The notes under the pieces: model-generated
Databases searched by the model: none
The model's input: only the letters and a program-made list of their open reading frames with translations
Told to the model about the DNA's origin: nothing
Made by a program: the position numbers and the translations under genes
Shown: positions 40,897 to 64,000 of the stretch, piece by piece
How positions within the stretch are numbered: position 1 is the stretch's first letter
Layout of the letters: each line of letters opens with the position of its first letter
Source of the DNA: Acutalibacteraceae bacterium
GTDB taxonomy: Bacteria > Bacillota > Clostridia > Oscillospirales > Acutalibacteraceae
Assembly: GCA_045542175.1 (NCBI GenBank)
Contig: JAZQKN010000137.1
Span: 8,961-72,960, forward strand
DNA length: 64,000 bases
Direction: 5' to 3'

Positions 40897-40900
40897 AGCC

Positions 40901-41938: not shown

Positions 41939-41948
41939 AACATACCTT

Positions 41949-43001
41949 TCAAAGTCTGCACGCCGTGATATGTGCTTTCACACCGTTTTCAATGCTGTAT
42001 TTTTTTGATTTTTCAGTAAGATAACGGCAGTATTCTGCGTTATCTGAATCAAGCAGTTTTTTAATACAATCATAAAGTGCCTTTGCATCGTCCGCAGGTG
42101 CGAGATACTGCGGATATTCTTCAGATAAAAACTCAATCGCAGCACCGCTTCCGTACGTTGAAACAATCGGTGTACCGTAGGACGCCGCTTCGTTAATTAC
42201 AAGACCCCAGCATTCCTGCCTTGACGGTAAAACAAAAGCCGCACATTTACGGTATTCTTTTTCCAACTCTTTCTTTTGCAAAAAAGGAATAAACTCAACG
42301 TTTTCTATTCCTTGCGGGCAGTATTTTTCAATAAAGCTCTGCATCTTACTGCCCATACCGATAAATTTATATTTTATTTCTTTGTTCATCCTTGCCGACT
42401 CAAGCGCAACGTCAATTCCCTTTACAAAAAGATACTGACCGACAACAAGAACAAATTTTTCTCTTTCTTTGTTTGACTCCGCGTTTTTCTTCAGTTCTTC
42501 ATCGGTTAATGAACTGAAATAATACGGTATAATTTCTTTTTCGCCAACAACCGCCCTGAGTGAATCAGCCGAATTGACACCGGCAACAAGATATCTGCTT
42601 GCACCTTTAAGAAAAAACCGTTTCATTGCGGATTTCAGACTTTTACCGCCGGCAAAAAATTCACCGTCGATATTCAGAATATACGATTTTTTAAACAGCC
42701 TGAGAAGAAGAATCATAAGCATCTGCACAGGGCTGTTGAAGCAACCGATAATTATTTCATCATAATCCTTAAAAAGCATCGAAACTGCTTTTAGTGAAAA
42801 AGCATTTTCTCCGCCGATTTTTATTCCCTCTGAAAACTCGGTTTTAAACAAAGGCTTTTCGCTTTCGCTCCAGTTACGGTTTCTTGAAGATGAACTGCTT
42901 CTTTCATACAAAACAGTGAGGTCACAGTGCTTTGCAAGCTCGTTAAAAAGTCTGACTCTGTAAGGCACTTCAATATTGCTGACATACAAAACCTTTTTCA
43001 A
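41949..43001 (-). CDS. Glycosyltransferase family 4
   Basis: KGIDV, FVLPSRQECWGLVINEAAS.GTP. Confidence 0.9.
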   Translation of the reverse strand: MKKVLYVSNIEVPYRVRLFNELAKHCDLTVLYERSSSSSRNRNWSESEKPLFKTEFSEGIKIGGENAFSLKAVSMLFKDYDEIIIGCFNSPVQMLMILLLRLFKKSYILNIDGEFFAGGKSLKSAMKRFFLKGASRYLVAGVNSADSLRAVVGEKEIIPYYFSSLTDEELKKNAESNKEREKFVLVVGQYLFVKGIDVALESARMNKEIKYKFIGMGSKMQSFIEKYCPQGIENVEFIPFLQKKELEKEYRKCAAFVLPSRQECWGLVINEAASYGTPIVSTYGSGAAIEFLSEEYPQYLAPADDAKALYDCIKKLLDSDNAEYCRYLTEKSKKYSIENGVKAHITACRL

Positions 43002-43027
43002 AGCCTACACCTCTTATCTCACTCAGC

Positions 43028-44107
43028 TTACTTTCTCTGACAGCTTTCACAGGTTGAACACGCGTCAAGCTGCTCTTTGGTTATCTTTCCGTCACGGAAA
43101 TCGCGTACGGTTTTATTCTCATACATCGAGTATTTTTTCTTTTTAAAGAAATTCAGGAACTTGTGTCTTATCACCCAGAGAGCGGGTTTATAAATATACT
43201 TATGCATTGCAGGTGAAACCGAACCTATCATCCAGCAGTTTCTGTCACAGCAACGCACCTTTTCTCGTACCGTTTCAGCCTTTTCGCTGTTCCACAGTTC
43301 TTCCCACGACTGCTCGTTGAGATTGCCCATAACCTCTTTCTCTTTTGTTCCGTTACAGGGCATTACGTCGCCGTAAGGATCAATGAAGAAAGTATCAAAA
43401 CTCATATCGCAGGGAAGCAAACGCTTGCAGCTGAATATATAGTTAATCAGACCGTGATTGAAATAAGCTCTGAACCATTTTTTAGGGCTGTTTGATTCAA
43501 GCATACGGTTGATAAGATTTTCAAAATTCTGTGCAACGGCAAGTCTGTCGTAAATGATATTATTTGATTCAACAAAATAAAAACTGTTATGGAGTGACGC
43601 CGTTGCAAACTCCATATTCAGTTCGTCTGAAATCTCATAAAGAGGAACAAGGTCTGCGGCATTTTTGTCCTGAACGGTCATTCCGAAACCTACGTCCTTC
43701 ATACCCATATCAACAAGCTTTTTAAGGGTTGTATAGCCTTTATTGAAGCCGTCTTCAAGTCCTCTGATTTCGTTGTTGGTCTGTTCAAGACCTTCAATGG
43801 AAATCCTTATTCCTATCTGCGGAAACTCTTTGCACAGGTCAACAATCCTGTCGGTGAAAAATCCGTTTGTTGAAATAACGATACGGTCGCTTTTTTTATA
43901 TAATTCACGCACTATATCCTTTAAATCATCTCTGATAAAAGGCTCTCCGCCCGTAATGTTTGTAAAATACATTTCGGGCAGCTTGCGGATAGTTTCTATT
44001 GAAATTTCCTCTTCGGGTTTTGATGGAACTTTATATCTGTTACACATTGTGCATTTTGCGTTGCATCGGTATGTAACAATAACCGTTCCGTTTAATTTTT
44101 TAGGCAT
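43028..44107 (-). CDS. Radical SAM protein with SPASM/twitch C-terminal domain
   Basis: CNAKCTMC, TGGEPF, STNG; C-terminal C...IDPYGDVMPC...CC.RNC. Confidence 0.92.
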   Translation of the reverse strand: MPKKLNGTVIVTYRCNAKCTMCNRYKVPSKPEEEISIETIRKLPEMYFTNITGGEPFIRDDLKDIVRELYKKSDRIVISTNGFFTDRIVDLCKEFPQIGIRISIEGLEQTNNEIRGLEDGFNKGYTTLKKLVDMGMKDVGFGMTVQDKNAADLVPLYEISDELNMEFATASLHNSFYFVESNNIIYDRLAVAQNFENLINRMLESNSPKKWFRAYFNHGLINYIFSCKRLLPCDMSFDTFFIDPYGDVMPCNGTKEKEVMGNLNEQSWEELWNSEKAETVREKVRCCDRNCWMIGSVSPAMHKYIYKPALWVIRHKFLNFFKKKKYSMYENKTVRDFRDGKITKEQLDACSTCESCQRK

Positions 44108-44152
44108 TATATTACCTCTGTTTTCTGAGTGAAATTTGCTTTTGTAAATCCG

Positions 44153-45361
44153 TTAACTGTAAACACGCAAAAGCTCTTCACAGTATTTTTCAGTTGAGTT
44201 GAATGAAACGTTTTTACAGTTTTCGCTGTAATTTTTCAGACTTTCCTCATCGTTGAGCAAAGCTTCAAGTTCCGTTCTGAGTTGTGCTTCGTTTCCGCTT
44301 TCAAAAAGTCTTCCTGTTTTTCCGACTTCGATAAGTTCGGGAATTCCTCCCCTGTTTGCGCCCAGCACGGGAGTAGCGTAAAGCTGGCTTTCAATAACTG
44401 AAAACGGACAGTTTTCGTTGCATTCTGACGGCACAACCGTCAGTTTCGCCGCAGAAATCACGTCTGCAAGCTCATTGCCCGAAAGAAAGCCTTTATTTTC
44501 AATGTTCTTTCTTTTGTTAACGTCTTCCTCAAGCGGGCCGCTTCCGGCAAAAACAAACTTCACGTCGGGAAGAGTGTCTGCAACCTTAAGCAACGTGTTT
44601 ACTCCCTTTTCTTCGGAATATCTGCCGAAATAGAGTACGTAATCCTTTTTCTCCGCCTGTACGTTACCGCATACGTCAACAAAATTATGCATAATTTTTA
44701 TTTTTTCTTTCAGAACGGGATACGTTGAAAGCTTCTCTGCAAGAAAAGCGCTCGGACAAATCACAGTATCTATGTACCTGTATGTTTTTTTAGCTTTCCA
44801 GAAATACGCTTCAGCCGCTCCGACAACACTTTTCAAAAACGAACCGTGAATGCATTTCCCTTTTATGCAGTTAAAAAAAAGACCGCCCACGCATTTTTCG
44901 CAATTTTTACCCGTTGCGGGATTAATCATAAGGTGGTTTGGGCACACAAGCTGTAAATCGTGCGCAGTGTATATTATTTTGCAGTTTCGTTTGTTTTCTT
45001 TTCTCCACTTTACGATTTCCAATATAATGCTGGGCGTAAGCTGATAGTTAAAATTATTAAGATGACACACGTCAGGCTGAAAATCGTCAAGAACCGCACG
45101 AAGCTTTTTTCTTGCCTCAGCTGAATACACAGTTTTAACAGGATATGTAATCTTACTGAGAACCGATCCTGCGTGAAAATCCATATTTGACGTGTAAGCC
45201 TGTGCATTGTTGCCGACAATTCTGTCGGGATGTTCCATACCGAAATATTCTACACTGTGTCCTGCAGACTGCAGAAAACCTCCGAGCTTGAAAAGGTAAG
45301 TTTCCGAACCGCCGTTAGGATATAAAAATTTATTTATAAGCAATACTTTCATTTTTCGCAT
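44153..45361 (-). CDS. Glycosyltransferase family 4
   Basis: GGSETY, FGRYSEEKG, PSECNENCPFSVIES, GGIPELI. Confidence 0.9.
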   Translation of the reverse strand: MRKMKVLLINKFLYPNGGSETYLFKLGGFLQSAGHSVEYFGMEHPDRIVGNNAQAYTSNMDFHAGSVLSKITYPVKTVYSAEARKKLRAVLDDFQPDVCHLNNFNYQLTPSIILEIVKWRKENKRNCKIIYTAHDLQLVCPNHLMINPATGKNCEKCVGGLFFNCIKGKCIHGSFLKSVVGAAEAYFWKAKKTYRYIDTVICPSAFLAEKLSTYPVLKEKIKIMHNFVDVCGNVQAEKKDYVLYFGRYSEEKGVNTLLKVADTLPDVKFVFAGSGPLEEDVNKRKNIENKGFLSGNELADVISAAKLTVVPSECNENCPFSVIESQLYATPVLGANRGGIPELIEVGKTGRLFESGNEAQLRTELEALLNDEESLKNYSENCKNVSFNSTEKYCEELLRVYS

Positions 45362-45379
45362 CCTTTTCGGCGGAATAAT

Positions 45380-46519
45380 TCAGCCTTTGTAAATATCTAA
45401 TGTTTTGTCAACAACGTCGTCCCAATTGTATTTACCGCAAATATAATCGGCACTATTTTCCTTATATCCGTAAACTTTTTCGGAATTTTCACACAAATCG
45501 GAAAGCTTTTCCTTAAGGTCTTGCGTGCTTCCCTTTTTAAAGGTAACACCGTGTTCACTTATTACCTCTGCGCACTCGGGAATATCGGAAACAAGGCAAC
45601 AGTTTCCGTAACTCATTGCTTCAAGCAGACTTAAAGGCATACCCTCAACGTCTGAAGGAAGCACGTAAACGTACGCGTTGGAATAAAGCTCTTCCCAGAT
45701 TTTCCCCTGAACAAATCCCGTAAATATTATTCTTTCATCGTCCGCGGCAGCTGTGCGGATTTTTCTTTCAAAATCCGCCGTATCCGATGAACCGCCGGCA
45801 ATAACAAGTTTTTTATCTGTAGCGATGCCCTTATAAGCATCGACCAGATATTCTATGCCCTTTTCGGGAACGAGTCTTCCGAGGAAAAGGATATATCCAT
45901 CTTTTTCAAGTCCGTATTTACGGCTTATTATATCGGCAGGGAGTTGAGCTGATTTGCTTATTCCGTTGGGAACAAAAACAGTTTCTCTGCCGTAAGTTTC
46001 TTTGAAATAGTTCTTTACGTTTTCGCTCAGAACGATTATTTCATCAGCAAGCTTAACCGCGCATTTTTCACCCAGACGAATGTATAGCGAAGCGAATCTG
46101 CCCCATTTTGCTCTCTGATGGTCAAGACCATGTACAGTAGCAACACATCTTTTGCCGAACAATTTAGGCAGCCAAATCATTGCGCAAGGACCTTCAGCGT
46201 GAAAATGAACGACGTCGTATTTTCCGAATGCTGCTTTTATTGCTGCAAAAACAGATGAGGTTACGGCGGCAAGTCCGCCTTTCTGAACCGTAAAAACCTC
46301 TTTGATTCTCACGCCTTTATAATCGGAAATTTTCTCTGAATCAAATTCTTCTCCGCTTACGTGATGCCCTTTTCTGTTGTAGCAGGTAACGCAATATCCT
46401 CGCTGAACCATTCTTGTTGAAAGCTCGCCCACAACAATTTCAATTCCGCCCTCACGTGACGGAATTCTTTTGTGACCGAGCATTGCAACGTTAAGCTTAC
46501 AGTTACTGCTTGAGGTCAT
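45380..46519 (-). CDS. Glycosyltransferase family 4
   Basis: GGIEIVV, GRLVPEKG, LPSDVEGMPLSLLEAMS.G. Confidence 0.92.
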   Translation of the reverse strand: MTSSSNCKLNVAMLGHKRIPSREGGIEIVVGELSTRMVQRGYCVTCYNRKGHHVSGEEFDSEKISDYKGVRIKEVFTVQKGGLAAVTSSVFAAIKAAFGKYDVVHFHAEGPCAMIWLPKLFGKRCVATVHGLDHQRAKWGRFASLYIRLGEKCAVKLADEIIVLSENVKNYFKETYGRETVFVPNGISKSAQLPADIISRKYGLEKDGYILFLGRLVPEKGIEYLVDAYKGIATDKKLVIAGGSSDTADFERKIRTAAADDERIIFTGFVQGKIWEELYSNAYVYVLPSDVEGMPLSLLEAMSYGNCCLVSDIPECAEVISEHGVTFKKGSTQDLKEKLSDLCENSEKVYGYKENSADYICGKYNWDDVVDKTLDIYKG

Positions 46520-47191
46520 TTATATGCCCTCCATTCCCAAAACCGTTCCGAAAGTTTTAAGAATAATTATCATATCGGTTTTGAAACTGCGTTCTTTGAT
46601 GTATTTCAAGTCGCATTTCATCCAATCGTCAAAAGAAACGCTGTTTCTCTGAGGCTGTATCTGCCAATAGCAGGTCAGACCGGGTGTTACACTCAAGCGC
46701 TGACGCTGATATTCATCATACATCTCAACCTCTCTGGGAAGAGGAGGTCTGGGACCGACAAAGCTCATTTCGCCTTTGAGTATGTTCAGCAGTTGGGGAA
46801 GCTCGTCAATGCAGACCCGTCTTATAATTCTTCCGAAACGAGTAATTCTCGGATCGTCCTTCATTTTAAAAGCGGGACCGTTCATTTCATTCTGAGCAAG
46901 CAACGATTCAAGCATAGTGTCAGCATTGGGAACCATCGATCTGAACTTATAAAACTTAAATTCACGTCCGTTTTTACCGACGCGCTTCTGAACGTAAATC
47001 GGCGAAGCACCCGGGCTGTCGATTACAATAATCAAAGCAACGGCAACCATAGGTATAAGCAATATAATTATAGCCAAAACAGAAAACACAATGTCGAAAC
47101 ATCTTTTAAAAAACTCATACGCGGGTTTTCTTTTGACGCAAATCATTTCACGGTTCGTATTAACTTGTACTTTTTCAGACGTCTGAACCAT
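46520..47191 (-). CDS. Priming sugar transferase (CpsE/WcaJ catalytic domain)
   Basis: KRCFD, KFRSM, DDPRIT, DELPQL.NIL.GEMSFVGPRP, PGLTCYWQ. Confidence 0.93.
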   Translation of the reverse strand: MVQTSEKVQVNTNREMICVKRKPAYEFFKRCFDIVFSVLAIIILLIPMVAVALIIVIDSPGASPIYVQKRVGKNGREFKFYKFRSMVPNADTMLESLLAQNEMNGPAFKMKDDPRITRFGRIIRRVCIDELPQLLNILKGEMSFVGPRPPLPREVEMYDEYQRQRLSVTPGLTCYWQIQPQRNSVSFDDWMKCDLKYIKERSFKTDMIIILKTFGTVLGMEGI

Positions 47192-47215
47192 AAAATCTGC
47201 ACCTTCCTGTTTTGA

Positions 47216-48217
47216 CTATTTTTTCTCTTCACAGAACAAATCAATTACAGTTGATTTGATTGCTTCTTCTTTGGGATAGAATTCCATATGCTCACCGACC
47301 TGAGCGCTTTCACCCTCAAGTTCATATATCGCAACGAAATGATAGCCCGCCGCTTTTTCTGCAAGATGCTGCAATCCGTTGCCCGTAAAATCCGAAACAA
47401 TATAGTCGGCAAGCTGAATGCCCGCTTCGGCTATAAATCCTTTATCGTTGTTAATTAAAGCAAGTGTTTTACGGTAAAGCGCATCAAGATACTGACGCTG
47501 ACGCTCCATTCGTCTTTCGTTTGTGCTGTCTGCAAGACCGTAACGTGTTCTGACATAATTAAGAGCGTGTTCTCCGTAAAGAGTTACCGTTTCACCTTTG
47601 ACAAGAGTATCGTCAACACCGGTAAAATCATCCATTACGGTTACTTCAACACCACCGACAAAATCATTGTAAACCGCTACAGCATCCATCGGAACGGAAA
47701 CGTAATGGTCAATAGGAACGTTAAGCAACAGACCTGAAACAGCATCCGCTGCATTGCGGCAGCTGACTTCCTGTCCGTTACCGTAAGTATGCGCAAGCGC
47801 AATCTGCTTTTTGACTGTTCCTACGTTATCGCCGGCAACGCCGAGAATATTCATCTCCGCTATTGTATCTCTGTTGATATGAAGCGCAGACAGGGTTTTG
47901 CTGTTGTGGTCAATAACAACGAGCATCATAAAGTCTGACTGCATATCGTTGTTGTACGAATCGGAATCAGATGATTCGTATTTATCAAGTCCCAGAACAA
48001 GAACGGTTTCTATGCCTTCTCTGAGCTGATACTCTTTTCCGTTATATTCATAACTTTTTGTGCTTTCCGTTTCGTGTTCGGGATAATTACTCTGATGTCT
48101 TTCCCATAATCCCAAAGCTAAAAACACAGCGGAAAGCAGAAGAATAACAGCAATAATAATTGCCGCTATCTTCAGTTTTTTAATCTTTTTTTCTTTTGCA
48201 GTGTAGACCTTTCTCAT
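47216..48217 (-). CDS. LCP (LytR-CpsA-Psr) family glycopolymer transferase
   Basis: N-terminal TM; VLGLD, SDFMML, INRDT, GGVEV, ALNYVRTR, RMERQRQY. Confidence 0.9.
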   Translation of the reverse strand: MRKVYTAKEKKIKKLKIAAIIIAVILLLSAVFLALGLWERHQSNYPEHETESTKSYEYNGKEYQLREGIETVLVLGLDKYESSDSDSYNNDMQSDFMMLVVIDHNSKTLSALHINRDTIAEMNILGVAGDNVGTVKKQIALAHTYGNGQEVSCRNAADAVSGLLLNVPIDHYVSVPMDAVAVYNDFVGGVEVTVMDDFTGVDDTLVKGETVTLYGEHALNYVRTRYGLADSTNERRMERQRQYLDALYRKTLALINNDKGFIAEAGIQLADYIVSDFTGNGLQHLAEKAAGYHFVAIYELEGESAQVGEHMEFYPKEEAIKSTVIDLFCEEKK

Positions 48218-48900
48218 ACAGCTTTCTTTTCCTTTTTGATAGCAAAAAGAAGGCCTGTGAGAGTAACAGCGGAAACAACGATTGCAATTACGGGAATGAT
48301 AATTGTTTTCATGTAGCCGTCAAGACCTGTGTCAGGTGTTGCTTCTACCTTTTTATCAACAACAATTGCAAAGGGTGAGAAATCGCTTGCCGAGAAAGTC
48401 AAAGTTTCCTGTTTAACGTCAACAACTGCGTTTTCAATAACTTCCCATTTACCGTCATTACCGCGGTGAATAAGAGCAACGAAGTTTTTGAGTGTTTCTG
48501 CTGAAAGCTTGATTGTAATGCTTCCGCAGTAGTTATGGTCAAGTGTGTGATAAGCGCTTACGTCAAAAAGGTCGCTTACTGCAAGACGTGCTGCAGGGAT
48601 ACCTTTTGCCGATGCAACGCCTGCGAGTTCGGGGCAAAGCTTTGTGAGGTCTTTGTTTTCGGCAATTTCCTTGTAAGCCTTGTTCATATCGTCTTCTTTA
48701 TTCTCTTCAAGAGTGTCTCTTTCAGAATAAGGAGTAACAACGATTTCGGGTTCGCAGGAGTCATCTTCATAGATAACTTCTTCAACAACAGGTGCTTCAT
48801 TGCCGGAGGGGCTTGCTACGAATCCGCCCTTAGCAAAGGCAACCACCGTGGTCGAAACCATAATTAAGAGTGCCAGACAAACCGCAAAAAACTTTTTCAT
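48214..48900 (-). CDS. Secreted protein with C-terminal sortase-type sorting signal
   Basis: Signal peptide; TPDTG followed by a hydrophobic helix and KKEKK tail; DFSPFAI strand just before the anchor. Confidence 0.75.
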   Translation of the reverse strand: MKKFFAVCLALLIMVSTTVVAFAKGGFVASPSGNEAPVVEEVIYEDDSCEPEIVVTPYSERDTLEENKEDDMNKAYKEIAENKDLTKLCPELAGVASAKGIPAARLAVSDLFDVSAYHTLDHNYCGSITIKLSAETLKNFVALIHRGNDGKWEVIENAVVDVKQETLTFSASDFSPFAIVVDKKVEATPDTGLDGYMKTIIIPVIAIVVSAVTLTGLLFAIKKEKKAV

Positions 48901-48906
48901 AAAAAA

Positions 48907-49617
48907 TCATCCTTTCAGTGTATGTATTTCACTAAAAATTTCTTCTGTAAAATTATTGAACCCTGCCAGAAATTCTGAGCCGAGTTTGTTTCCGATTGTT
49001 TTGTATGCTCTGCCGATGTCGGGTGCCCTTTCCGTCATATTGTGGCAGTCGGAGCCGATGAAGTGGATTTCACATTTTTTTAGAAGCTTCATCGCTTTCC
49101 TCTGCGAGAAAAAGCCGTTGACATAGCTTGCATTAATCTGAAAAAGCACGTCGTTTTGCAATAAACCGTAAAACGTGCTTTTGCTTTGAAGACCCATGCA
49201 CCTTTCGATATGTGCAAGAACAAGATGTATACTTCCGTCGGAAGCAATATCATTGAGTTCGCGCAGTGTGTAATCGCTCCATTTTCTTTCGGGCATTTCC
49301 AAAAGCAAAAGCCTTGTTCCTTGCACGCACAAAGATTTCAGATCTTTCATACGGCTTATGCCTTCGTAATATCTCACCTCTGCGCCCTGAACGATTCTGG
49401 GCATTTCTTCCGTCAAGTGCGGCAACAGTTTTTCATAAGCTTCCTGACGTCTTAAAAGAAACTCCGAAACAGATTCATCGTTTGCATAAAAATGAGGAGT
49501 TGCAATAACACGGTGTATGCTTTGCTGTGAAAGCAAATCAAGCATCGCCAGGCTTTCCTTCACGTTGCGGCTTCCGTCGTCGATTTCAGGAAGAATGTGG
49601 GAATGAAAATCCGTCAT
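48907..49617 (-). CDS. CpsB/CapC PHP-family tyrosine phosphatase
   Basis: DFHSHILP..DDG, ATPH, GAEV, LAHIER, GSDCH. Confidence 0.93.
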   Translation of the reverse strand: MTDFHSHILPEIDDGSRNVKESLAMLDLLSQQSIHRVIATPHFYANDESVSEFLLRRQEAYEKLLPHLTEEMPRIVQGAEVRYYEGISRMKDLKSLCVQGTRLLLLEMPERKWSDYTLRELNDIASDGSIHLVLAHIERCMGLQSKSTFYGLLQNDVLFQINASYVNGFFSQRKAMKLLKKCEIHFIGSDCHNMTERAPDIGRAYKTIGNKLGSEFLAGFNNFTEEIFSEIHTLKG

Positions 49618-49629
49618 GCCTGCACCCTC

Positions 49630-50373
49630 TTACTTATTATCGCCATAAGTCTTGTAATATTTATAATATTTCTTATAGCGGTATTTGCTGTAGTATCCCT
49701 TGCCTTTTTTATCTTCATTGATTACACATCCGAGCACGTTGACGTCTGAAAGCTTAAGCTGTCTGAAACAGGTTTCAAGCTCCTTCTTTTCTGTGTAATC
49801 CTCTCTGATAACAACGATCATACCGTTTATGAATTTCGAAACCGCCAGAGCGTCGGAAACAAGGTTTACGGGAGGAAGGTCAATTATAATGCAATCGAAG
49901 TTCTGCGAAAGTGTTTTCAGAACGTTGCTCATTCTTTCAGAACCGAGAAGTTCCGAAGGATTGGGAGGCAGCGCGCCCGAAGGCATTATGTACCAGTTAT
50001 TATGTTCGGGGGATTTGAAAGTGCCCATCTGAACCGACTTTGCTCCGCGGAGCAAATCCGTAAGACCGTAAGAATTCTCTATCCCCATCTTTTTGGCAAC
50101 GCTGGGAATTCTCATATCGCCGTCGATAAGCAGAACCTTTTTTCCGCTTTCCGCCATAACGTATGAAAGGTTAACGGCTGTTGTGCTCTTGCCCTCGCCT
50201 CGCATAGCACTTGTTATGCCGATTATAGAGCATTTTTCATCTTCGGGGAGAGTAAACGAAAGATTCGTTCTTAAAAGCTTATACTGTTCAACCGCTGTAA
50301 ATTCCAGATTCTTGTGCAGGGTCTTTTTAACGTCGCTGTTTGAGAAAAAATTGTTTTTACTGTGTTTGCTCAT
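49630..50373 (-). CDS. CpsD/CapB BY-kinase
   Basis: GEGKST, LIDGDMR.P, PPNPSELL, IIDLPP, C-terminal tyrosine cluster. Confidence 0.94.
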   Translation of the reverse strand: MSKHSKNNFFSNSDVKKTLHKNLEFTAVEQYKLLRTNLSFTLPEDEKCSIIGITSAMRGEGKSTTAVNLSYVMAESGKKVLLIDGDMRIPSVAKKMGIENSYGLTDLLRGAKSVQMGTFKSPEHNNWYIMPSGALPPNPSELLGSERMSNVLKTLSQNFDCIIIDLPPVNLVSDALAVSKFINGMIVVIREDYTEKKELETCFRQLKLSDVNVLGCVINEDKKGKGYYSKYRYKKYYKYYKTYGDNK

Positions 50374-50389
50374 TTTAAATCACCTGCTT

Positions 50390-51148
50390 TCAATTCTGGT
50401 TTTTATAGCTGTTGTAGTATGAATACTTCTTTGTTCCAACGTTCATCAGATCGGGAATCCTTGCAAGAATCGGATAACCGTAATTGTTGATAACGTATTC
50501 TTCATCGTGAATTGTATTATCAAGCATTGCCAGAACAACAAGCAAGGCTACCGAAAAGAATACGCCAAGCACTAAACCGATTGCGGTATACTGTGTGATA
50601 TTCGGAGCAACTTTCTGGTTAACGGCTATAGCCGAGTCAACAACCTCCATTGAACTGCCCTCAACAATTTCAGAAACTCTCTGCGGCAAAACTTCTGCAA
50701 TTCCGTTTGCGATAAGCTTTGCTTCGTAAGGGTCGTTGCACGTTACGGTAACCTGCATAATTTCGGTTTCGTTAACAGAATCAGCTTCAATCATTTCATA
50801 AAGCTCCTGCCACGAATACTCAACACCTGTTTTTTTAATGATTTTTTCAAGTGTTGTTCTGTTTTTAAGAAGTACCGTATATGTTTTTACAAGGCTCTGT
50901 GCGGCGCTGATTTCCGACGAGCTGATGCTGAAACCAAGATCGCCTACAGTAAACGAGCTGTTGTTAACGTAAAGCATAATTGATGAAGAGTAGGTAGGAG
51001 TTATAGCAAAAGCTGCGATGGAAAAAGCAATAACGCCCGCTAAAATACCCGAAATAGCAACAACCCAGATTTTATGCCAGATATACTTCAGAATATGAAG
51101 TAAATCAATCACATAATATTCTTTTGATTCATTCTTCTTTGCTTCCAT
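50390..51148 (-). CDS. Polysaccharide chain-length determinant (CpsC/Wzz), first gene of the EPS operon
   Basis: IDLLHIL, two TM segments, TPTYSS, VVDSA....VAPN. Confidence 0.92.
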   Translation of the reverse strand: MEAKKNESKEYYVIDLLHILKYIWHKIWVVAISGILAGVIAFSIAAFAITPTYSSSIMLYVNNSSFTVGDLGFSISSSEISAAQSLVKTYTVLLKNRTTLEKIIKKTGVEYSWQELYEMIEADSVNETEIMQVTVTCNDPYEAKLIANGIAEVLPQRVSEIVEGSSMEVVDSAIAVNQKVAPNITQYTAIGLVLGVFFSVALLVVLAMLDNTIHDEEYVINNYGYPILARIPDLMNVGTKKYSYYNSYKNQN

Positions 51149-57397: not shown

Positions 57398-57586
57398 CCG
57401 TTTTTATAATCCCAAAGACCTCACCTTGTGTGGGGTCTTTTTTTGACGGATACGTCAGATTTTACCGTATTGACCCGCAATGTGTTTCCCCAGACCTGAC
57501 GTGCGGGTTTTGTGATAATACAACAAAAATCCGTAGTTGTTGCAAAAATCTGACGAATGTGATAGAATTTGGCAGAGGTGATTATT

Positions 57587-58975
57587 TTGTTTTCAGAAAT
57601 ACGAATTACCGAGAATTTTTATATCCCCTATGGCAATATGTGCTTTGTTTATGAAAAGTCTGAAAATGAAAAACTTCATAACCTTTGCGTTGATTTAGAG
57701 CAGACACTGAAGATGGATTTTGAAAGCTTTGCTCACAAAATCCGCAAAGTTCTTGAAGAGTTTGTTTTGCACGAAGAAGCTAAACGAAGAATTATTGAAT
57801 CTGAAATGAAATTCAACGTGCAAACAACCCGCGAAAGGATTACCGGCGAAATAGTCCGTGGCAAAAGTTCATACGGAGATTTGCTGGTAGATTTATGTTC
57901 AGCCTCCGAAAACCGGGAATTATTTAAAAAGATAATAACCAAACACTTCAATCTTTCTGACGGTATCAGTCAGGACGTATACATAAGCCGCTTAAAAGAA
58001 TACGTTATCAGCATTTTGCGATTTGCAAGCAAAAATTCTCATTCGGGAGAAAAATCGCAGGAGCTGGAACCCGACGACGGAGTTTGCAGAAAATATATGC
58101 GGATGCTGTATGATTTGTTAAGCGCTTATTACGGTTACACCGTTAAATATGACGGCGGCAAACTCCCGCTTGGCGATTATTATCCGGTTTCAAAAGCTCT
58201 TTGCAGAGAAAATGGGATTCATCTTCCCGAAGGTAAACATTTCTACGTACAGCAAGGCGAAAAAAGCGTTAAATACTATATTTTTTCTTCTGCCGACAAA
58301 GCAATGAAAGAAACCCAGCAAAGAGACATAGAAACAATTCAGAAATTATGGACGGATAATTTTGATTTTCCGCAGAACGTTATACCTCAGTCAGGCTTTA
58401 TTTCAAACAAAAACGGTGAAAACTTCAGATTCAGAACTTATGCTCTGCCGTCTTTTCCGCAAAGCATAACAGATGAATACATATCCTCGCTTTCTGACGA
58501 TGAAAAAATGCAGATTGTTAAAGGAATTGTCAAAGGTGTTGCTTCAATGCATAATGCAGAGCCGCCGTTTTATCACAGATGTATTTCTCCGTCTTCGTTT
58601 CTTGTTTGCAAAATCAAAAACGGTCTCAAGCCTTTCCTCATTAATTTTGACTGCGTAAAGGATACTGACAGCGATGCGGCATTTACCGTTCTTTATGCTG
58701 TAGGCGAGAAAATGGAAAGTTCCGAAAACCCCGAGCTTCTTTTTGCTCCCGAATTGCTCGATGATGAGATTATCGACAGCAATGACGTAAACTGGGCAAA
58801 AGCTGATATTTATGCCCTCGGAAGAACTCTTCTTAAGATTTTAACCAATTCATATTCCGTTCCCGAAGAAAAACCTGAATGCATAAGTTCAGAGAAATTC
58901 GATGCGCTGGTCCTTATGTGTGAAGAAAGTCCCGGAAGCCGCCCTGATTTGTCAGATATCATTAATATTTTTTAA
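57587..58975 (+). CDS. DUF4145/HEPN-like N-terminal domain fused to a degenerate Ser/Thr kinase-like domain
   Basis: KIRKVLEE and RFASKNSH motifs; kinase C-lobe HRCISP..F, INFD, FAPE, KADIYALG, P.SRP; TTG start after GAGGTG. Confidence 0.7.
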   Translation: MFSEIRITENFYIPYGNMCFVYEKSENEKLHNLCVDLEQTLKMDFESFAHKIRKVLEEFVLHEEAKRRIIESEMKFNVQTTRERITGEIVRGKSSYGDLLVDLCSASENRELFKKIITKHFNLSDGISQDVYISRLKEYVISILRFASKNSHSGEKSQELEPDDGVCRKYMRMLYDLLSAYYGYTVKYDGGKLPLGDYYPVSKALCRENGIHLPEGKHFYVQQGEKSVKYYIFSSADKAMKETQQRDIETIQKLWTDNFDFPQNVIPQSGFISNKNGENFRFRTYALPSFPQSITDEYISSLSDDEKMQIVKGIVKGVASMHNAEPPFYHRCISPSSFLVCKIKNGLKPFLINFDCVKDTDSDAAFTVLYAVGEKMESSENPELLFAPELLDDEIIDSNDVNWAKADIYALGRTLLKILTNSYSVPEEKPECISSEKFDALVLMCEESPGSRPDLSDIINIF

Positions 58976-58980
58976 AAATA

Positions 58981-59016
58981 AAAACAGACCGATGTTACCT
59001 TTCATCGGTCTGTTTT
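58981..59016. terminator. Bidirectional terminator between the pseudokinase gene and the small-ORF cluster
   Basis: AAAACAGACCGATG / CATCGGTCTGTTTT. Confidence 0.8.
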
Positions 59017-59162
59017 CGTTTTGGTCTCCTGTTGATTTTTATCAGGGTTATGCGCGAGCCGCATTCGGTGCAGCGGGGCAAGTCAAGTGGAATTGCCGTT
59101 CCGCATCTGGGGCAGAACACATTGCCTGATGTTCGGGTTGCGCCTGTCATTATCAATGACAT
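58995..59162 (-). CDS. Small zinc-ribbon protein, 55 aa (not in ORF track)
   Basis: Manual translation MSLIMTGATRTSGNVFCPRCGTAIPLDLPRCTECGSRITLIKINRRPKRKQTDER; AAAGGAG RBS; true start may be the TTG at 59156. Confidence 0.65.
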   Translation of the reverse strand: MSLIMTGATRTSGNVFCPRCGTAIPLDLPRCTECGSRITLIKINRRPKRKQTDER

Positions 59163-59172
59163 TTCTCCTTTC

Positions 59173-59313
59173 TTATCGGCGTGATTTGATTGCGTCTGCT
59201 ACGGGCTGTGCTGCGGCGATTGCTGTTCCGATGGGAATCAGCACTTTGGCGATTGTAACCGCTGTTGTTGCTGCTTTTGCGGCTGCTGTGAGCGTGAAAA
59301 ATGAAACCAGCAT
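59173..59313 (-). CDS. Small Ala-rich hydrophobic peptide, 46 aa (not in ORF track)
   Basis: MLVSFFTLTAAAKAATTAVTIAKVLIPIGTAIAAAQPVADAIKSRR; AAAGGAGG RBS 7 nt upstream. Confidence 0.7.
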   Translation of the reverse strand: MLVSFFTLTAAAKAATTAVTIAKVLIPIGTAIAAAQPVADAIKSRR

Positions 59314-59355
59314 TCTTCTTCCTCCTTTCTTTATCTGTATGATATTAAAGGCTTA

Positions 59356-59421
59356 TCAGCCTTTGATGGCGATGATTACTTCGCCTGCTGCGACTAATAT
59401 CGCACCGATAAGTGCCAGCAT
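59356..59421 (-). CDS. Very small hydrophobic peptide, 21 aa (not in ORF track)
   Basis: MLALIGAILVAAGEVIIAIKG with tandem TGA-TAA stops; AAAGGAGGTG RBS. Confidence 0.65.
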   Translation of the reverse strand: MLALIGAILVAAGEVIIAIKG

Positions 59422-59454
59422 CAGAGCACCTCCTTTCTTCTTTATTTTCTGCTT

Positions 59455-59613
59455 TTATCCGCGCGACGAACCTGCGTCACTGCGCTTTTTGCGCCAGGTG
59501 CCGTCCTGATTGCGGCTGCGGTTCTGTCCCGCCGTGGGTCCTGTTTTAACTATGGGGCCGTGGGTGTCTCTGGGGCTTGCGGATGCTTTTGCGAATGATG
59601 ATAAAATGCTCAT
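59455..59613 (-). CDS. Small basic protein, 52 aa (not in ORF track)
   Basis: MSILSSFAKASASPRDTHGPIVKTGPTAGQNRSRNQDGTWRKKRSDAGSSRG; GAAAGGA RBS; promoter upstream. Confidence 0.65.
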   Translation of the reverse strand: MSILSSFAKASASPRDTHGPIVKTGPTAGQNRSRNQDGTWRKKRSDAGSSRG

Positions 59614-59661
59614 CTGAATCTTTCCTTTCGTTTTTTGAGTTTGTTTTTTGGGAACATCTGC

Positions 59662-59703
59662 ATTGTAGCAGACGCATAATCGGGTTTTGTAAAAACGGAT
59701 TAC
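59662..59703 (-). promoter_or_regulatory. Conserved box plus extended -10 promoter (copy 1)
   Basis: Minus strand GTAATCCGTTTTTACAAA, then TGcTACAAT. Confidence 0.65.
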
Positions 59704-59840
59704 GGCTTTTCGGTGTATTTGATTATTACACGCGGCAGATGTTTTTCCGCATTTACTTTTTTACAATGGTCGAACACCGATTTATGAGGATAAGGAAATG
59801 AAGGCTTGTTTTGTTTATCCGTTTGTCTGAACACTGTCAT
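59700..59840 (-). CDS. Small basic protein, 44-46 aa (not in ORF track)
   Basis: (MT)VFRQTDKQNKPSFPYPHKSVFDHCKKVNAEKHLPRVIIKYTEKP; AGGAGGTG RBS suits the GTG at 59834. Confidence 0.55.
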   Translation of the reverse strand: MTVFRQTDKQNKPSFPYPHKSVFDHCKKVNAEKHLPRVIIKYTEKP

Positions 59841-59857
59841 CACCTCCTGACAACACC

Positions 59858-59898
59858 AGTATAACAGAGCAAAAACACGGTTTGTAAAAACGGATTAC
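59858..59898 (-). promoter_or_regulatory. Conserved box plus extended -10 promoter (copy 2)
   Basis: Minus strand GTAATCCGTTTTTACAAA (identical 18-mer), then TGtTATACT. Confidence 0.65.
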
Positions 59899-59902
59899 AA
59901 AG

Positions 59903-59928
59903 AAAAAACCGCCCTTCGGGGCGGTTTT
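59903..59928 (-). terminator. Intrinsic terminator of the kinase-NB-ARC-TPR gene
   Basis: CCGCCC-CGAA-GGGCGG followed by T6 on the minus strand. Confidence 0.85.
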
Positions 59929-59931
59929 GAG

Positions 59932-62900
59932 CTAATTGCTGTTCGCGGTTATTTCATCAATAATCGACTGCGTTTTTTGAGTCCTGTAATCATTTTTTCC
60001 AAAAATTTCGATTTGAATTTCAAGAGCTTTTGTAAGGTTAACCTCTGCTTCAGACCGCAGACCTTTTTCAATATTCAGCCGTCCTAACCAATAATACGAG
60101 TCAGCCGTTTCACTGTGCTTTTGTCCCAGCATATTTTCTCTGATACTAAGAGATTTTAAGATTAAAGGTTCTGCTTTTTCTGTTAAATGTTGTTCTACAT
60201 AAAGTGCTCCCAAAGTGCAATAACAACGCGCCAGATCTGACTGTTCTATTTTCAACTTCTCTCTTATTTCTATTGATTTTAAAAAATATTTTTCAGCATT
60301 CGGAATGTTTTTTGTTTTATCATAAAACCCACCTAAATTATGATAACAATTCGCAACCACGATATGATCCTCACCATATAATGACAGCCTTATATCAAGG
60401 GCTTGGTTTAGCTCTTCTTCAGCACAGTCGTACTGTTCTTCTCTTATGTTGACTAGCGCCAAAGCATTGTATGATTGAGCCACCGCTTCGTTTTTCAGAC
60501 CAAAAAGCATTTTTCTTATTTCGAGCGAGCGTAAATACATTTTCTTTGCATTTGTATAATCTTCAAGAAATAAGAAAAGGTTACCTTTTGAATGATAGGT
60601 TGACGCAACATCAGACGAACATTCTCCAAACAGTTCGATTTGAATTTTCAAGCTTTTATCATAATGATTCTTTGCTTCCTCAAAAAAATCTGTATCAAAA
60701 CAAACGTCTCCCAAGTGACAATAAACCGTTGCAATCAAACTGTGTGAAGTGTTGTAATGGTTTTCAAGTAATTCCAATGCATACTTAAATTCTTTTTTAG
60801 CTTCAGAGTAGTTTCCTTTCGTATGATATATCACTCCGAGATTATCGTGAATTCCGGCAATTTCTTTGATGAAAGTTTTTATGTAATTCTGTCCATAAGC
60901 TTTTTCATAAGTTTCAAGGGCTTGTTTTGTAAATAATTCAGCGTTATCAACATCATCTTTTAACAAATACACTGCACCCAGATTGCTGTATGAGTCAGCA
61001 ATAAGGCAACCGGGACAGTCTGCATTATTCTTTCCGATTTTGATACATTCACAAAGGCATCTGATATCCAGTTCAAAATATCCGAACTCCGTTCCAACCG
61101 GATCCATACCTAAAAACCTTGCAACAGAAGTTGTCTGCAAACCGCTTCTTAAAACTTTTACGGATACAGAATTCTTTAAATTTACATAATAATACCGTTC
61201 AGCGAACTCCAAAGAACCGAAATGACTTTTTTCGCTTAAAAAAGCAAAAAAATTATTCAAAAACAAAGAAATATCAGCAGCCTTGTCTTTCACCAACCCA
61301 AACATAATATCAGACACAACAGGATGCAATGATATGAAATCCTTTTCTTCATCCCATCTTATCCAGCCCTCGCTTACAAGAGAATTGACTGTTTCGTAAT
61401 CTTCAAGTCCACACCAATCTCTGAACTGCTCTGCTGAAATTCCCGAATGGGGAATAAGTGAAAGATTTCCGAGAATATTAATCGCATTTTCATCAAGGTC
61501 CGAAATATCAAAAAGTGCACGGATATGGTCATAAGCACTTTGTCTTGATAAAACGCTGTCTTTGCCCGCTTCCACCTTTTCTTTTCCGCTGTCAGCCAAG
61601 CCTCCGTTGCTGAGCACATCAAACATCTTCTGAGGTGTTACCCTGCCCGACTTCATCTGCTTTGCAAGGAGTTCAACCGTCATAGTATGACCGTCAACAA
61701 GGTCAATAATCAAGCTGACTATCCTCTTGCTTTCCTCGTCGATTGCTTTTGTATAATAATTATTGAATATTGAGTTGATATCGCTGCGCACAGCAAGAGC
61801 GCCGATTTCAATCTGAGGATAATTGTAATCAGCAAAGTTATTTCTTGTTGTTATTAATTTTTTGCAACCGAGAGATAAAACGTCGTTCAGATGCGGATCT
61901 TCAACCGTATCAAAATTATCGATTATAAGCAGTGTGCGTTCATTGCAAAGCTCCTTTAATTTGCGAAGCTTTCTGTCATAATACTCATTTGGCTGCTCAC
62001 CTTGGAACATTTCTATGTTAACAACAGAAACGTATTTGTCATCGGTAATCAGCATCATAATATCGTTTATATAAGGGGCAAATATTATTGCATCATAACC
62101 GTCTTTGAATTTAACGGCATAATTTTTGACGAGTTCACTTTTTCCTATGCCGCCCATTCCGCTGACAAAAAGAACGTCATTCTCTTTTAATTTGTTATGT
62201 ATTTCCTCTGTCTCTTTGTCGCGGCCGACAAAAAAGCTTTGCTGAGCAGGAAGCGTTGAAACAATTCTGGGCTCGTGGGGATTCGCCAGAGGTATCATTT
62301 CTTCAAGAGCTTCAAGCATTTCGTCTGCAGAAGCATATCTTTTTGAAACAACGCCGCAAATCGTTTTGCTGAAAAATTCAGAAAGCGCAGGGAATATTTT
62401 CGGATCAACGTCTTTACAGATTTCAGAATCAAAGTCATATTCATATTTCGCAAAGCTTCTGCGCTCATCGGCGGAAGAATGTCTGCCGAAAAGCTGATAA
62501 AACACCATTTCGCCTATTGAAAACAAGTCAGTAGCTTCACATATTTTCCCTCTTCTTCCCGGCAGCAAAAGCTCGGGTGCAGCCCATACCTCTGTATACG
62601 AAACCGCTCTGCCGGAAACAGCCTCACCCTTGGTGAGAACGCTGTCAAAGTCAAAGAATATAACAAACTCCGCTGACTCCGGAAGAGCAAAAATATTATT
62701 CGGTTTTAAATCCAGATGAAGATATCCGTTACCGTGATAATGCTTTACCGTCTGAGTGATTGTTCTGATTCTTCGCAAAAGGTCATAGAGACTTGTTTCC
62801 TGTATTTTATCATACGTTGTACCGTTAAAACACGCCATATCAATGTATTCGGTACCGTTGCCTTTGTAAATTCCCTGAACGTTGCCTGTCGTATTTTTGG

Positions 62901-63207
62901 TTTCGTCGATTTTTCTTATGCCAAGCTGCTTCTTATATCCGTTTTCAAAACGCAGTAACCCCGAGACAAAAGCCTCCATTTCTTCTTCGCTGTCCGCGAA
63001 AAGAAATCCTGATTCATCCCTGCCAAGATCAAGCTTTTGAGGGTTATATTCCTTAAGAAGATGCTCGGTACAAATTCCGTTTTTGTCCGTGAATTCGGCA
63101 AAATATACCGCACACGAAGAACCGTATCCGATAACCGATTTGATTTTGAAAACGCCTTCTATACCGTCAAGTGAAAATTCATATTCCGGCTGTAAATATC
63201 TTTTCAT
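59932..63207 (-). CDS. Ser/Thr kinase - NB-ARC (STAND NTPase) - TPR protein (bacterial NLR-like)
   Basis: GYGSSCAVY, LLKE, HLDLKPNN, DFD, APE; FVGR, GMGGIGKS, LLIIDNFD, LITTR, GHT, LHP; about 8 TPR repeats of the type G..H..VA..Y.NLG; ATG after AAGGAG. Confidence 0.9.
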   Translation of the reverse strand: MKRYLQPEYEFSLDGIEGVFKIKSVIGYGSSCAVYFAEFTDKNGICTEHLLKEYNPQKLDLGRDESGFLFADSEEEMEAFVSGLLRFENGYKKQLGIRKIDETKNTTGNVQGIYKGNGTEYIDMACFNGTTYDKIQETSLYDLLRRIRTITQTVKHYHGNGYLHLDLKPNNIFALPESAEFVIFFDFDSVLTKGEAVSGRAVSYTEVWAAPELLLPGRRGKICEATDLFSIGEMVFYQLFGRHSSADERRSFAKYEYDFDSEICKDVDPKIFPALSEFFSKTICGVVSKRYASADEMLEALEEMIPLANPHEPRIVSTLPAQQSFFVGRDKETEEIHNKLKENDVLFVSGMGGIGKSELVKNYAVKFKDGYDAIIFAPYINDIMMLITDDKYVSVVNIEMFQGEQPNEYYDRKLRKLKELCNERTLLIIDNFDTVEDPHLNDVLSLGCKKLITTRNNFADYNYPQIEIGALAVRSDINSIFNNYYTKAIDEESKRIVSLIIDLVDGHTMTVELLAKQMKSGRVTPQKMFDVLSNGGLADSGKEKVEAGKDSVLSRQSAYDHIRALFDISDLDENAINILGNLSLIPHSGISAEQFRDWCGLEDYETVNSLVSEGWIRWDEEKDFISLHPVVSDIMFGLVKDKAADISLFLNNFFAFLSEKSHFGSLEFAERYYYVNLKNSVSVKVLRSGLQTTSVARFLGMDPVGTEFGYFELDIRCLCECIKIGKNNADCPGCLIADSYSNLGAVYLLKDDVDNAELFTKQALETYEKAYGQNYIKTFIKEIAGIHDNLGVIYHTKGNYSEAKKEFKYALELLENHYNTSHSLIATVYCHLGDVCFDTDFFEEAKNHYDKSLKIQIELFGECSSDVASTYHSKGNLFLFLEDYTNAKKMYLRSLEIRKMLFGLKNEAVAQSYNALALVNIREEQYDCAEEELNQALDIRLSLYGEDHIVVANCYHNLGGFYDKTKNIPNAEKYFLKSIEIREKLKIEQSDLARCYCTLGALYVEQHLTEKAEPLILKSLSIRENMLGQKHSETADSYYWLGRLNIEKGLRSEAEVNLTKALEIQIEIFGKNDYRTQKTQSIIDEITANSN

Positions 63208-63227: not shown

Positions 63228-63268
63228 ATAGTATCATTCAAAACAAAAGTATTTGTAAAAACCGATTA
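63228..63268 (-). promoter_or_regulatory. Conserved box plus extended -10 promoter (copy 3)
   Basis: Minus strand TAATCGGTTTTTACAAA (16/17 match), then TGaTACTAT. Confidence 0.6.
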
Positions 63269-64000
63269 TTCAAACGAACTGAGATAGTATTTTTCAATAA
63301 GGGCACGAAGCTCATCTACAGGATTCGGCGCGCACGCACAATATCCTATCATCCAGTCAAACGGATTGCGCCAATACAGTCCTACATAACCGCATTCGGC
63401 AAGAACAGAATCCATTTCATCGTAAAACTCAAAAAACAGCTCTTGTCCGCCTTCAATCCCGTTCAGTTTCGCTTCTGTAAAAAAGCTGTAAAAATTAAGA
63501 ATTACAAGTGCTTTTTTAATTACCTCATACGAAGCTTTGCCTTTCAATATATTCTCAATTTGTTGTCTTTGCGGGAAGTTGCGTTTGATAAGTTTCGGAA
63601 AACCCGATTTACTGATGCTCGAACTGTAAACACGTATACCTTGTCCGCTTTTTTTATCAACACCCTCGGTTCCTCTTGCGGAATAAGAATAAATCGCATC
63701 AAGCAATGCATCAACGGTTCGGATTTCTTTTCTGCTGTCAGGGCAACCGTTTTCCCCGTTTGCCAGAACCATACATTTATTTATCAGGACTTTTATTTTT
63801 TCTGTTGCCGTTTTGTTGTTAATCTTAAATCCCGAACTGTTTTCCGTTATGTAATTTATCAACTCTTCTTCGGTGTCTTTTAAGTAAATCTCTTTTCCGA
63901 TATTTTCTGTAGCGTCTTCTGCTTCGGAATTGTTTATATGTTGCTTTTTTTCGATAATATCTATAATTCTTAGAGCGTCCGAATATGTTCTGCCTGATTT
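63266..64000 (-). CDS. Hypothetical protein, 5' truncated; possibly helical and DNA-binding
   Basis: Frame is open without stops from 64000 to the TAA at 63266; C-terminal L..CGY..LY..NPFD..I motif. Confidence 0.7.
   Translation of the reverse strand, partial: KSGRTYSDALRIIDIIEKKQHINNSEAEDATENIGKEIYLKDTEEELINYITENSSGFKINNKTATEKIKVLINKCMVLANGENGCPDSRKEIRTVDALLDAIYSYSARGTEGVDKKSGQGIRVYSSSISKSGFPKLIKRNFPQRQQIENILKGKASYEVIKKALVILNFYSFFTEAKLNGIEGGQELFFEFYDEMDSVLAECGYVGLYWRNPFDWMIGYCACAPNPVDELRALIEKYYLSSFE

Follow-up and report, generated by a model that had tools for sequence, protein, structure and literature searches.

The window, meaning here the whole 64,000-nucleotide stretch of DNA that was analysed, carries an array of very short ORFs set between two larger genes. 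The 956 bases that separate a kinase-NB-ARC-TPR gene from a convergent kinase-like gene comprise five minus-strand ORFs of 44, 52, 21, 46 and 53-55 codons (in the order ORF1 to ORF5). Together with the gene of a predicted XRE-HTH regulator, the kinase-NB-ARC-TPR gene and the convergent pseudokinase gene, the array makes up a four-part unit, the features of which are as follows (SD, Shine-Dalgarno sequence).

63266..64000, minus strand: 3′ part of the gene of a candidate palindrome-binding regulator of 388 aa with a predicted N-terminal XRE-type HTH, starting beyond the window at C137:73392
63230..63269, minus strand: P0 promoter-like site before the kinase gene, with a palindrome variant (63254-63269) and an extended -10
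59932..63207, minus strand: Ser/Thr kinase-NB-ARC/STAND-TPR protein of 1091 aa, with an SD-supported ATG and an open frame from 63237; Pfam Pkinase, NB-ARC and TPR_12
59905..59928, minus strand: intrinsic terminator-like hairpin at the end of the kinase gene (z -3.1)
59858..59899, minus strand: P1 promoter-like site, with a palindrome (59883-59899) and an extended -10 (59858-59866), kept in orthologues
59700..59834, minus strand: ORF1, 44-aa basic protein with a GTG start at 59834 and SD at 59841-59848
59662..59704, minus strand: P2 promoter-like site, with a palindrome (59688-59704) overlapping the ORF1 stop and an extended -10 (59662-59670)
59455..59613, minus strand: ORF2, basic peptide of 52 aa, of which some 38 form a core conserved across phyla; SD at 59623-59629
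59356..59421, minus strand: ORF3, 21-aa hydrophobic peptide (GRAVY 2.1) with one predicted membrane helix; SD at 59427-59437
59173..59313, minus strand: ORF4, 46-aa Ala-rich hydrophobic peptide with a basic tail; SD at 59321-59329
58995..59156, minus strand: ORF5, four-cysteine zinc ribbon, likely of 53 aa (TTG start), or 55 aa if begun at ATG 59162; SD at 59164-59172
58980..59017, no strand assigned: two-way terminator-like hairpin common to ORF5 and the pseudokinase gene (z -6.3 and -7.2)
57569..58975, plus strand: convergent pseudokinase with catalytic Asp and Lys replaced, a Pkinase match below the cut-off and an unclassified N-terminal domain

A preliminary description of the locus had reported five minus-strand ORFs of less than 60 aa, each with a strong SD, and all five ORFs were found along with the five SD strings it quoted. 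When ORFs of at least 20 aa with an SD match of at least 6 were counted, the minus strand of the array gave five and its plus strand none. In 2000 dinucleotide shuffles the maximum was three such SD-ORFs, reached in four of the shuffles, with four or more in 0/2000, and when the entire 2.56-Mb genome was scanned the array was the sole cluster of at least four. The judgement that five ribosome binding site-start pairs would be unlikely by chance is thus upheld.

Two orthologues from the same genus keep all five frames, starts and SDs, and their spacers drift. Pooled pN/pS in the proposed frame, calculated from three sequences (the window and these two close orthologues), is 0.30 for ORF1, 0.15 for ORF2, 0.23 for ORF3, 0.33 for ORF4 and 0.25 for ORF5, with pairwise values across the ORFs ranging from 0.03 to 0.46. 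In all five cases the proposed frame has the lowest pN/pS of the six frames and contains no stops, a combination which most of the other frames fail to give. A fourth genome retains ORF4 and ORF5 adjoining the pseudokinase gene at a contig end, and four of the five ORFs have distant relatives, ORF1 being the exception. The homologues were also inspected for frameshifts, stops and loss of the SDs, any of which would speak against the ORFs as genes, and they were found to have intact frames and conserved SDs. With purifying selection on all five and distant relatives for four of them, the comparisons support the earlier proposal of five microprotein genes and indicate that all are conserved genes, with selection acting on the encoded proteins.

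Three runs of a single gut metatranscriptome study yielded RNA contigs that span 58943-59141, 59151-59533 and 59540-59736 at a depth of 2-5; two of their three coding differences are synonymous, and such contigs cannot reveal the strand or rule out DNA as their source. No Rfam match near the gathering score was found in the array; for this reason, and because codon usage points to protein-level constraint, a reading of the array as non-coding RNA was rejected. An antisense ORF of 140 aa (59087-59509) was also rejected, as it is fragmented in an orthologue.

The five products are on the whole as first described, with the exception of the length of ORF5. Its ATG sits 1-2 nt past the SD in 4/4 orthologues and its TTG 7-8 nt past it. 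Among 415 long genes of the genome, an SD-start spacing of 7-9 nt is the mode (278/415), with 1-2 nt found in 8/415. Since the ATG lies too near the SD and the TTG stands at the usual spacing of the genome, ORF5 probably begins at TTG 59156 and encodes 53 aa rather than 55. A hairpin at 59145-59161 (minus strand) spans the three possible starts of ORF5 and is identical in four orthologues, with a folding z of only -1.5; it may control ORF5 translation.

ORF1 is the weakest gene of the five. It is known only from three near-kin sequences, no distant relatives of it were found in the fetched loci, and its last codons overlap P2; its promoter-free codons 21-36 have a pN/pS of 0.19. No family was found for ORF1 to ORF4 in Pfam, NCBIfam or PHROG, or for ORF2 in PADLOC. 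ORF3-like genes were found in 19 of the 141 ORF2 loci, ORF4-like genes in 18 and ORF5-like genes in 11, corresponding to 13, 13 and 7 of 98 dereplicated groups, counts which are partly circular, as 12, 12 and 7 of these same loci respectively supplied the seeds of the three HMMs. None of the three was present in 20 control stretches, and in their own genome they occur at the array only. The relatives of ORF3 and ORF4 have strong SDs, and those of ORF3, ORF4 and ORF5 recur near ORF2 in reshuffled orders. Other arrays carry hydrophobic Gly/Ala-rich proteins of 85-90 aa or different zinc ribbons in their place, and metagenome contig L135 has the order ORF2, ORF4, ORF5 and pseudokinase again, with a second array beyond. 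The latter (L135:3508-4221), which lies past the pseudokinase gene, consists of an ORF4-like gene, an ORF3-like gene and two Pro-rich peptides of 28 aa behind a copy of the palindrome. The 85-90-aa proteins form an unnamed, glycine-zipper-like family (L011:5669-5935 and seven other genome loci), often directly 5′ of ORF2, for which no Pfam, NCBIfam or PADLOC match was found.

ORF2 has the widest distribution documented here. All 260 candidates of the protein search were significant, and a profile search gave 190 clusters at 50% identity. Behind a free N-terminus, about 38 residues form a nearly invariant core, with some 70-85% identity across Bacillota, Pseudomonadota, Synergistota, Chloroflexota, plasmids and phage G, an indication of a single conserved target. 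Over 58 distinct sequences the invariant Ser and Arg residues use both of their codon blocks, so that the constraint appears to act on the protein; codon-position entropy in the core is 0.57/0.34/1.56. The gene is present in 59 genome loci from these four phyla and on six plasmids, and also in prophage accessory positions and in Bacillus phage G. Its occurrence is patchy, with five strong matches and one weak match in 132 genomes of the genus, 2/201 in the family and 0/398 among the other class genomes searched. A strict scan of viral sequences gave none and a looser search 13 loci, several with the C-terminal half alone. The relative in phage G, a cultured jumbo phage, is gp196 (L193:3441-3611), which adjoins a PtsH-like gene and is labelled 'Hypothetical' in the supplement of PMC12484599. 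In a tree of 49 rows and 40 columns, made after removal of identical duplicates and of rows without the core pattern, the phyla are mixed and one starred clade contains three of them; as 23 of its 46 forks are open, no direction of transfer is claimed.

The structural model of ORF2 (pLDDT 74.9) has little regular structure. For ORF2 there was no PDB sequence match, no Foldseek match under E 3.9 and no VIA match at Z 2, and three unnamed ESM Atlas clusters at 0.83-0.84 are leads only. With a charge of +7 and a tail of Arg, Lys and Trp, the peptide may bind nucleic acid. In two proteobacterial copies that were tested, the core is fused to a CFI-box-CTERM domain that scores above the cut-off (L045:119-562, L053:6040-6450), and a motif resembling this domain lies downstream of ORF2 in 10/141 loci. 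There is also a 921-aa CFI-box-CTERM protein (L028:3206-5971) located after a dynamin gene and directly upstream of a free ORF2. An ORF2-like core can further be found at the N-terminus of a long protein (586-aa ORFs in L148 and L150) or at a C-terminus following an apparent signal peptide, the proteins listed with such cores being P0156, P0158, P0167, P0169 and P0175. A purely cytoplasmic role would leave the relatives with signal peptides or CFI-box-CTERM domains unexplained. Neither the ORF2 motifs nor CFI-box-CTERM were found in the open library of literature searched, and no motif was found in the 12 of 14 supplements of PMC13376575 that were covered. Relatives of ORF2 are present in Enterococcus italicus, Ligilactobacillus species and Bacillus phage G, all culturable, so its function is testable now.

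A defence-type gene neighbours ORF2 in 31 of 53 genome loci (the 59 less six near-duplicates) and in 28 of 50 after dereplication, in a tally made by hand and not blind, which counted WYL genes and scanned 81/140 upstream and 71/101 downstream neighbours. These neighbours include WYL regulators, STAND proteins, type I/III restriction-modification, BREX PglX, CRISPR genes, dynamin, NADAR, AbiEii, E1/E2/JAB and toxin-antitoxin genes, and in L017 Bunzi lies directly 3′ of ORF2. Of 20 control sites spaced evenly along two related genomes from the same order, one had a defence-type neighbour, or three if SLOG genes are included; 28/50 against 3/20 gives a Fisher p of 0.003, with kin that are not independent. 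The PADLOC scan was confined to the ORF2 loci. The most frequent neighbours of ORF2 are divergent XRE or WYL regulators, and 22 of the 53 loci have no defence-type neighbour. In Synergistota (L044:8723-11787, L047:208-3259) ORF2 is followed by a set of E2-like, RNase H-like and JAB-E1 genes. One of the control sites (L168:4493-6127, G049) has a double-GTPase protein with XRE and Hsp70 neighbours and is likely a conflict system.

Members of the four-part unit other than the array (kinase-NB-ARC-TPR, regulator or pseudokinase), whole or partial, were found in 15 of the 141 ORF2 loci, two of these having a generic kinase match alone, and 126 loci are without them. The kinase-NB-ARC-TPR protein matches Pkinase, NB-ARC and TPR above the Pfam cut-offs; its kinase is of the Hanks type, and the catalytic motifs HLD-x-K, DFD and APE and the Walker A motif are intact in 8/8 aligned relatives. 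In PADLOC 2023/NCBIfam the kinases of the window give only partial, generic kinase/TPR matches, and PADLOC has no match for ORF2 or for the orthologue of the regulator. The 388-aa regulator has 265 homologues and a model with a pLDDT of 89.5. No Pfam family and no Foldseek match was found for it. Most of the 50 structural matches listed for this model are XRE-HTH domains, to which residues 41-128 or thereabouts align with Z 4-5.7 (all under Z 6) and an rmsd of 2.3-3, and it is accordingly predicted from its model to carry an XRE-type DNA-binding domain. Just upstream of the island, beyond the window, G000:C137:73740-74993 (L187) codes for a 416-aa HTH protein, which we take to combine its HTH with a HipA-like part.

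The pseudokinase lacks the catalytic Asp and Lys in 7/7 relatives and is rare, being present in 3/131 other genomes of the genus and 1/400 of the family. Its N-terminal helical domain (57569-58140) has an invariant R-F-A-S-x-N-x-H motif (Arg-x6-His), possibly of a HEPN/DUF4145-like kind, and no Pfam support was found for a HEPN-like domain there. ORF5 accompanies this protein closely. It matches the zinc ribbon PF13240 with 27 bits against a cut-off of 25, its four Cys are invariant in 8/8, and relatives of it were identified in 11/11 pseudokinase loci (ten by HMM and L049 by tblastn) and in 1/130 loci without a pseudokinase, that one at a contig end. Prediction of a complex between the two gave 0.68 (runs 0.68, 0.71 and 0.01), compared with 0.00 for the highest-scoring of three controls, the score mark being reached by 116/157 solved and 2/215 mismatched pairs (counts that hold only roughly for the alignments used here); the score may reflect likeness to known structures, because kinase-peptide complexes are common among those solved. 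At least 36% of contacts agree between runs, with a partner pLDDT of at least 46. ORF5 is predicted by this model to dock on the pseudokinase at its catalytic loop and activation segment, with the invariant ORF5 residues Thr4-Gly5 and Ile39 placed substrate-like on the catalytic loop and on the invariant activation-segment residues 363-368.

The array had been described as packed between two terminators and served by two promoters. The terminators are confirmed, both flanking hairpins carrying U-runs, and the stop of ORF5 sits in the loop of the 58980-59017 hairpin, one arm of which is formed by its last codons. The promoters, in contrast, do not hold as plain consensus sigma-70 sites. Neither P1 nor P2 was listed by a promoter scan, and the TTTACA box which the two share lies 19-20 nt from the extended -10, too far for it to be an ordinary -35 box; it is instead the right arm of a palindrome, TGTAA-spacer-TTACA. 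The one palindrome precedes three promoter-like sites, namely both of those in the array and that of the kinase gene, and two or three copies are found ahead of arrays in distant islands. It is present in 10/15 island loci against 16/126 other ORF2 loci (7/9 dereplicated island groups), counts that are supporting and not independent, as the pattern was derived from these same loci and its loose form matches 41 places in the genome. The simplest reading of this arrangement is that one regulator, likely the 388-aa XRE-type protein, controls both the kinase gene and the array. Lying about 41 nt ahead of the likely start, the palindrome would suit an activator and is also compatible with a repressor.

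While the preliminary description had the genes right, it missed the wider island, the palindrome common to its promoters and the breadth of the ORF2 family. The account we favour, tentatively, is that the array encodes small proteins which are the regulated output of a conflict island, rare, mobile and probably anti-phage, made up of the XRE-HTH regulator, the kinase-NB-ARC-TPR protein and the pseudokinase. The TPR/STAND part would sense a trigger, and the kinase would then alter the activity of the regulator at the palindrome such that the array is induced. ORF3 and ORF4 may enter the membrane of their own cell and slow or kill it, ORF2 may bind nucleic acid, and ORF5 could, with the pseudokinase, tune or hold the signal. 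Elsewhere, parts of the same cassette stand under WYL or other XRE regulators. A bolder version, which we consider rather doubtful, has an NLR-like TPR sensor kinase switching on swappable microprotein effectors that are restrained by a zinc ribbon bound substrate-like to the pseudokinase, with ORF2 as a plug-in effector across unrelated defence systems. If true, this would be a new type of bacterial immune signalling, and ORF2 would have been overlooked owing to its size.

The carriage of ORF2 by plasmids, by prophages at accessory positions and by phage G, the frequency of divergent XRE/WYL regulators beside it and the 22/53 loci free of defence-type neighbours would also be expected if the cassette were a general stress or element-maintenance (addiction-like) regulon responsive to DNA damage or envelope stress, found near defence genes as both gather in islands. 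This seems unlikely given that the array lies between genes for a STAND-TPR kinase and a pseudokinase and has a palindrome in common with them, and that no toxin-antitoxin family matches any of the ORFs. It is highly improbable that only ORF2 and perhaps ORF5 matter, the others being young or decaying passengers kept by their overlap with promoters and terminators. The restriction of ORF1 to near kin, the overlap of its end with P2, the use of the last ORF5 codons as a terminator arm and the dependence of pN/pS on three sequences are in keeping with such passengers, but the low pN/pS of ORF1 in codons 21-36 and the relatives of ORF3 and ORF4 in 13/98 dereplicated groups each argue against them.

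The two hydrophobic peptides could instead act outside the cell. Being Ala/Gly-rich, in tandem and often with glycine-zipper-like proteins of 85-90 aa, ORF3 and ORF4 might be secreted leaderless bacteriocin- or modulin-like peptides directed against other bacteria, with the rest of the island serving for regulation and immunity. The net charge of ORF3 is 0, however, the island has no recognised exporter, peptidase or immunity gene, and comparison with bacteriocin families gave no match for either peptide, the best being a weak one to PSM-delta (E 0.37) for 1/13 ORF3 relatives, which makes this role distinctly improbable. Only a slim chance is given to ORF3 as the precursor of an SHP-like pheromone whose sensor would be the XRE protein or the TPR domain, in which case the island would be a quorum-sensing circuit. 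ORF3 is 21 aa long and hydrophobic, with Glu eight residues from its end and an XRE-HTH gene nearby, and in 9/13 relatives an acid residue stands at -10 to -5. On the other hand, 4/13 relatives have no acidic residue, 0/13 a basic N-terminus and 4/13 end in Gly, while the XRE protein is 3.9 kb off and co-directional, with only its HTH aligning to Rgg/ComR structures. Mature SHPs start at the conserved acid residue, and the described precursors are likewise hydrophobic, of about 21 aa, with the acid residue before the hydrophobic tail and an XRE-HTH protein nearby, as far as the part of that study considered goes (PMC3679016). The array differs in having no adjacent divergent or convergent rgg, being flanked by kinase-STAND-TPR and pseudokinase genes, and the XRE protein gave no match to a TPR-like peptide-binding domain.

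Type I toxins, phenol-soluble modulins and multi-peptide leaderless bacteriocins are short hydrophobic or amphipathic peptides that are encoded in tandem with strong SDs. The array resembles them in its tandem short hydrophobic peptides with strong SDs, but has no family match above the cut-off, no antisense RNA family and no recognised exporter. The favoured reading of a conflict island finds closer parallels in the STAND/NLR-like anti-phage proteins (Avs and bacterial NACHT; bioRxiv 10.1101/2022.07.19.500537), which likewise combine an N-terminal enzyme, a central STAND NTPase and a C-terminal TPR and are accessory and island-borne. The present protein begins with a Hanks kinase, and its gene is accompanied by a pseudokinase, an XRE-type regulator and an array of microprotein genes linked by a common palindrome. 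Beyond generic kinase/TPR matches, none of the PADLOC system models fits the island. In CapK/CapS, a system of kinase-repressor control of immune operons, CapK is an anti-sigma-type kinase and CapS a STAS protein (PMC13373217). CapH/CapP and WYL regulators are related forms of control. By analogy, genes for a kinase and for a DNA-binding protein placed 5′ of what may be an immune operon suggest transcription controlled by phosphorylation, although a Hanks kinase-STAND-TPR protein, an XRE-HTH protein and a microprotein output set the island apart from it. By these likenesses, the island appears to work most like STAND/NLR-type defence joined to CapK/CapS-style kinase-controlled transcription, and the tests run did not place it in either of these described systems.

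Small-protein families of defence islands and the mobilome have been catalogued by Sberro et al. (bioRxiv 10.1101/494179) and, like those here, include genes of up to 50 aa near defence genes that are patchy and cross phyla. In the part of that work at hand these are single families defined by neighbourhood, whereas the present case is a multi-gene regulated cassette, and ORF2 may already be present in its family tables as an unnamed family. A cassette of this composition was not described in the open library searched. Four unnamed microprotein families occur, in changing order, in or beside many kinds of defence island. Screens for defence systems mostly skip genes below 60-100 codons. The predicted ORF5-pseudokinase pair and the common palindrome offer handles on how the kinase-STAND protein could signal. 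Elsewhere in the window (39844-51148), judged from the translations alone, lies an ordinary-looking capsule/exopolysaccharide cluster with genes for glycosyltransferases, chain-length determination and a tyrosine kinase.
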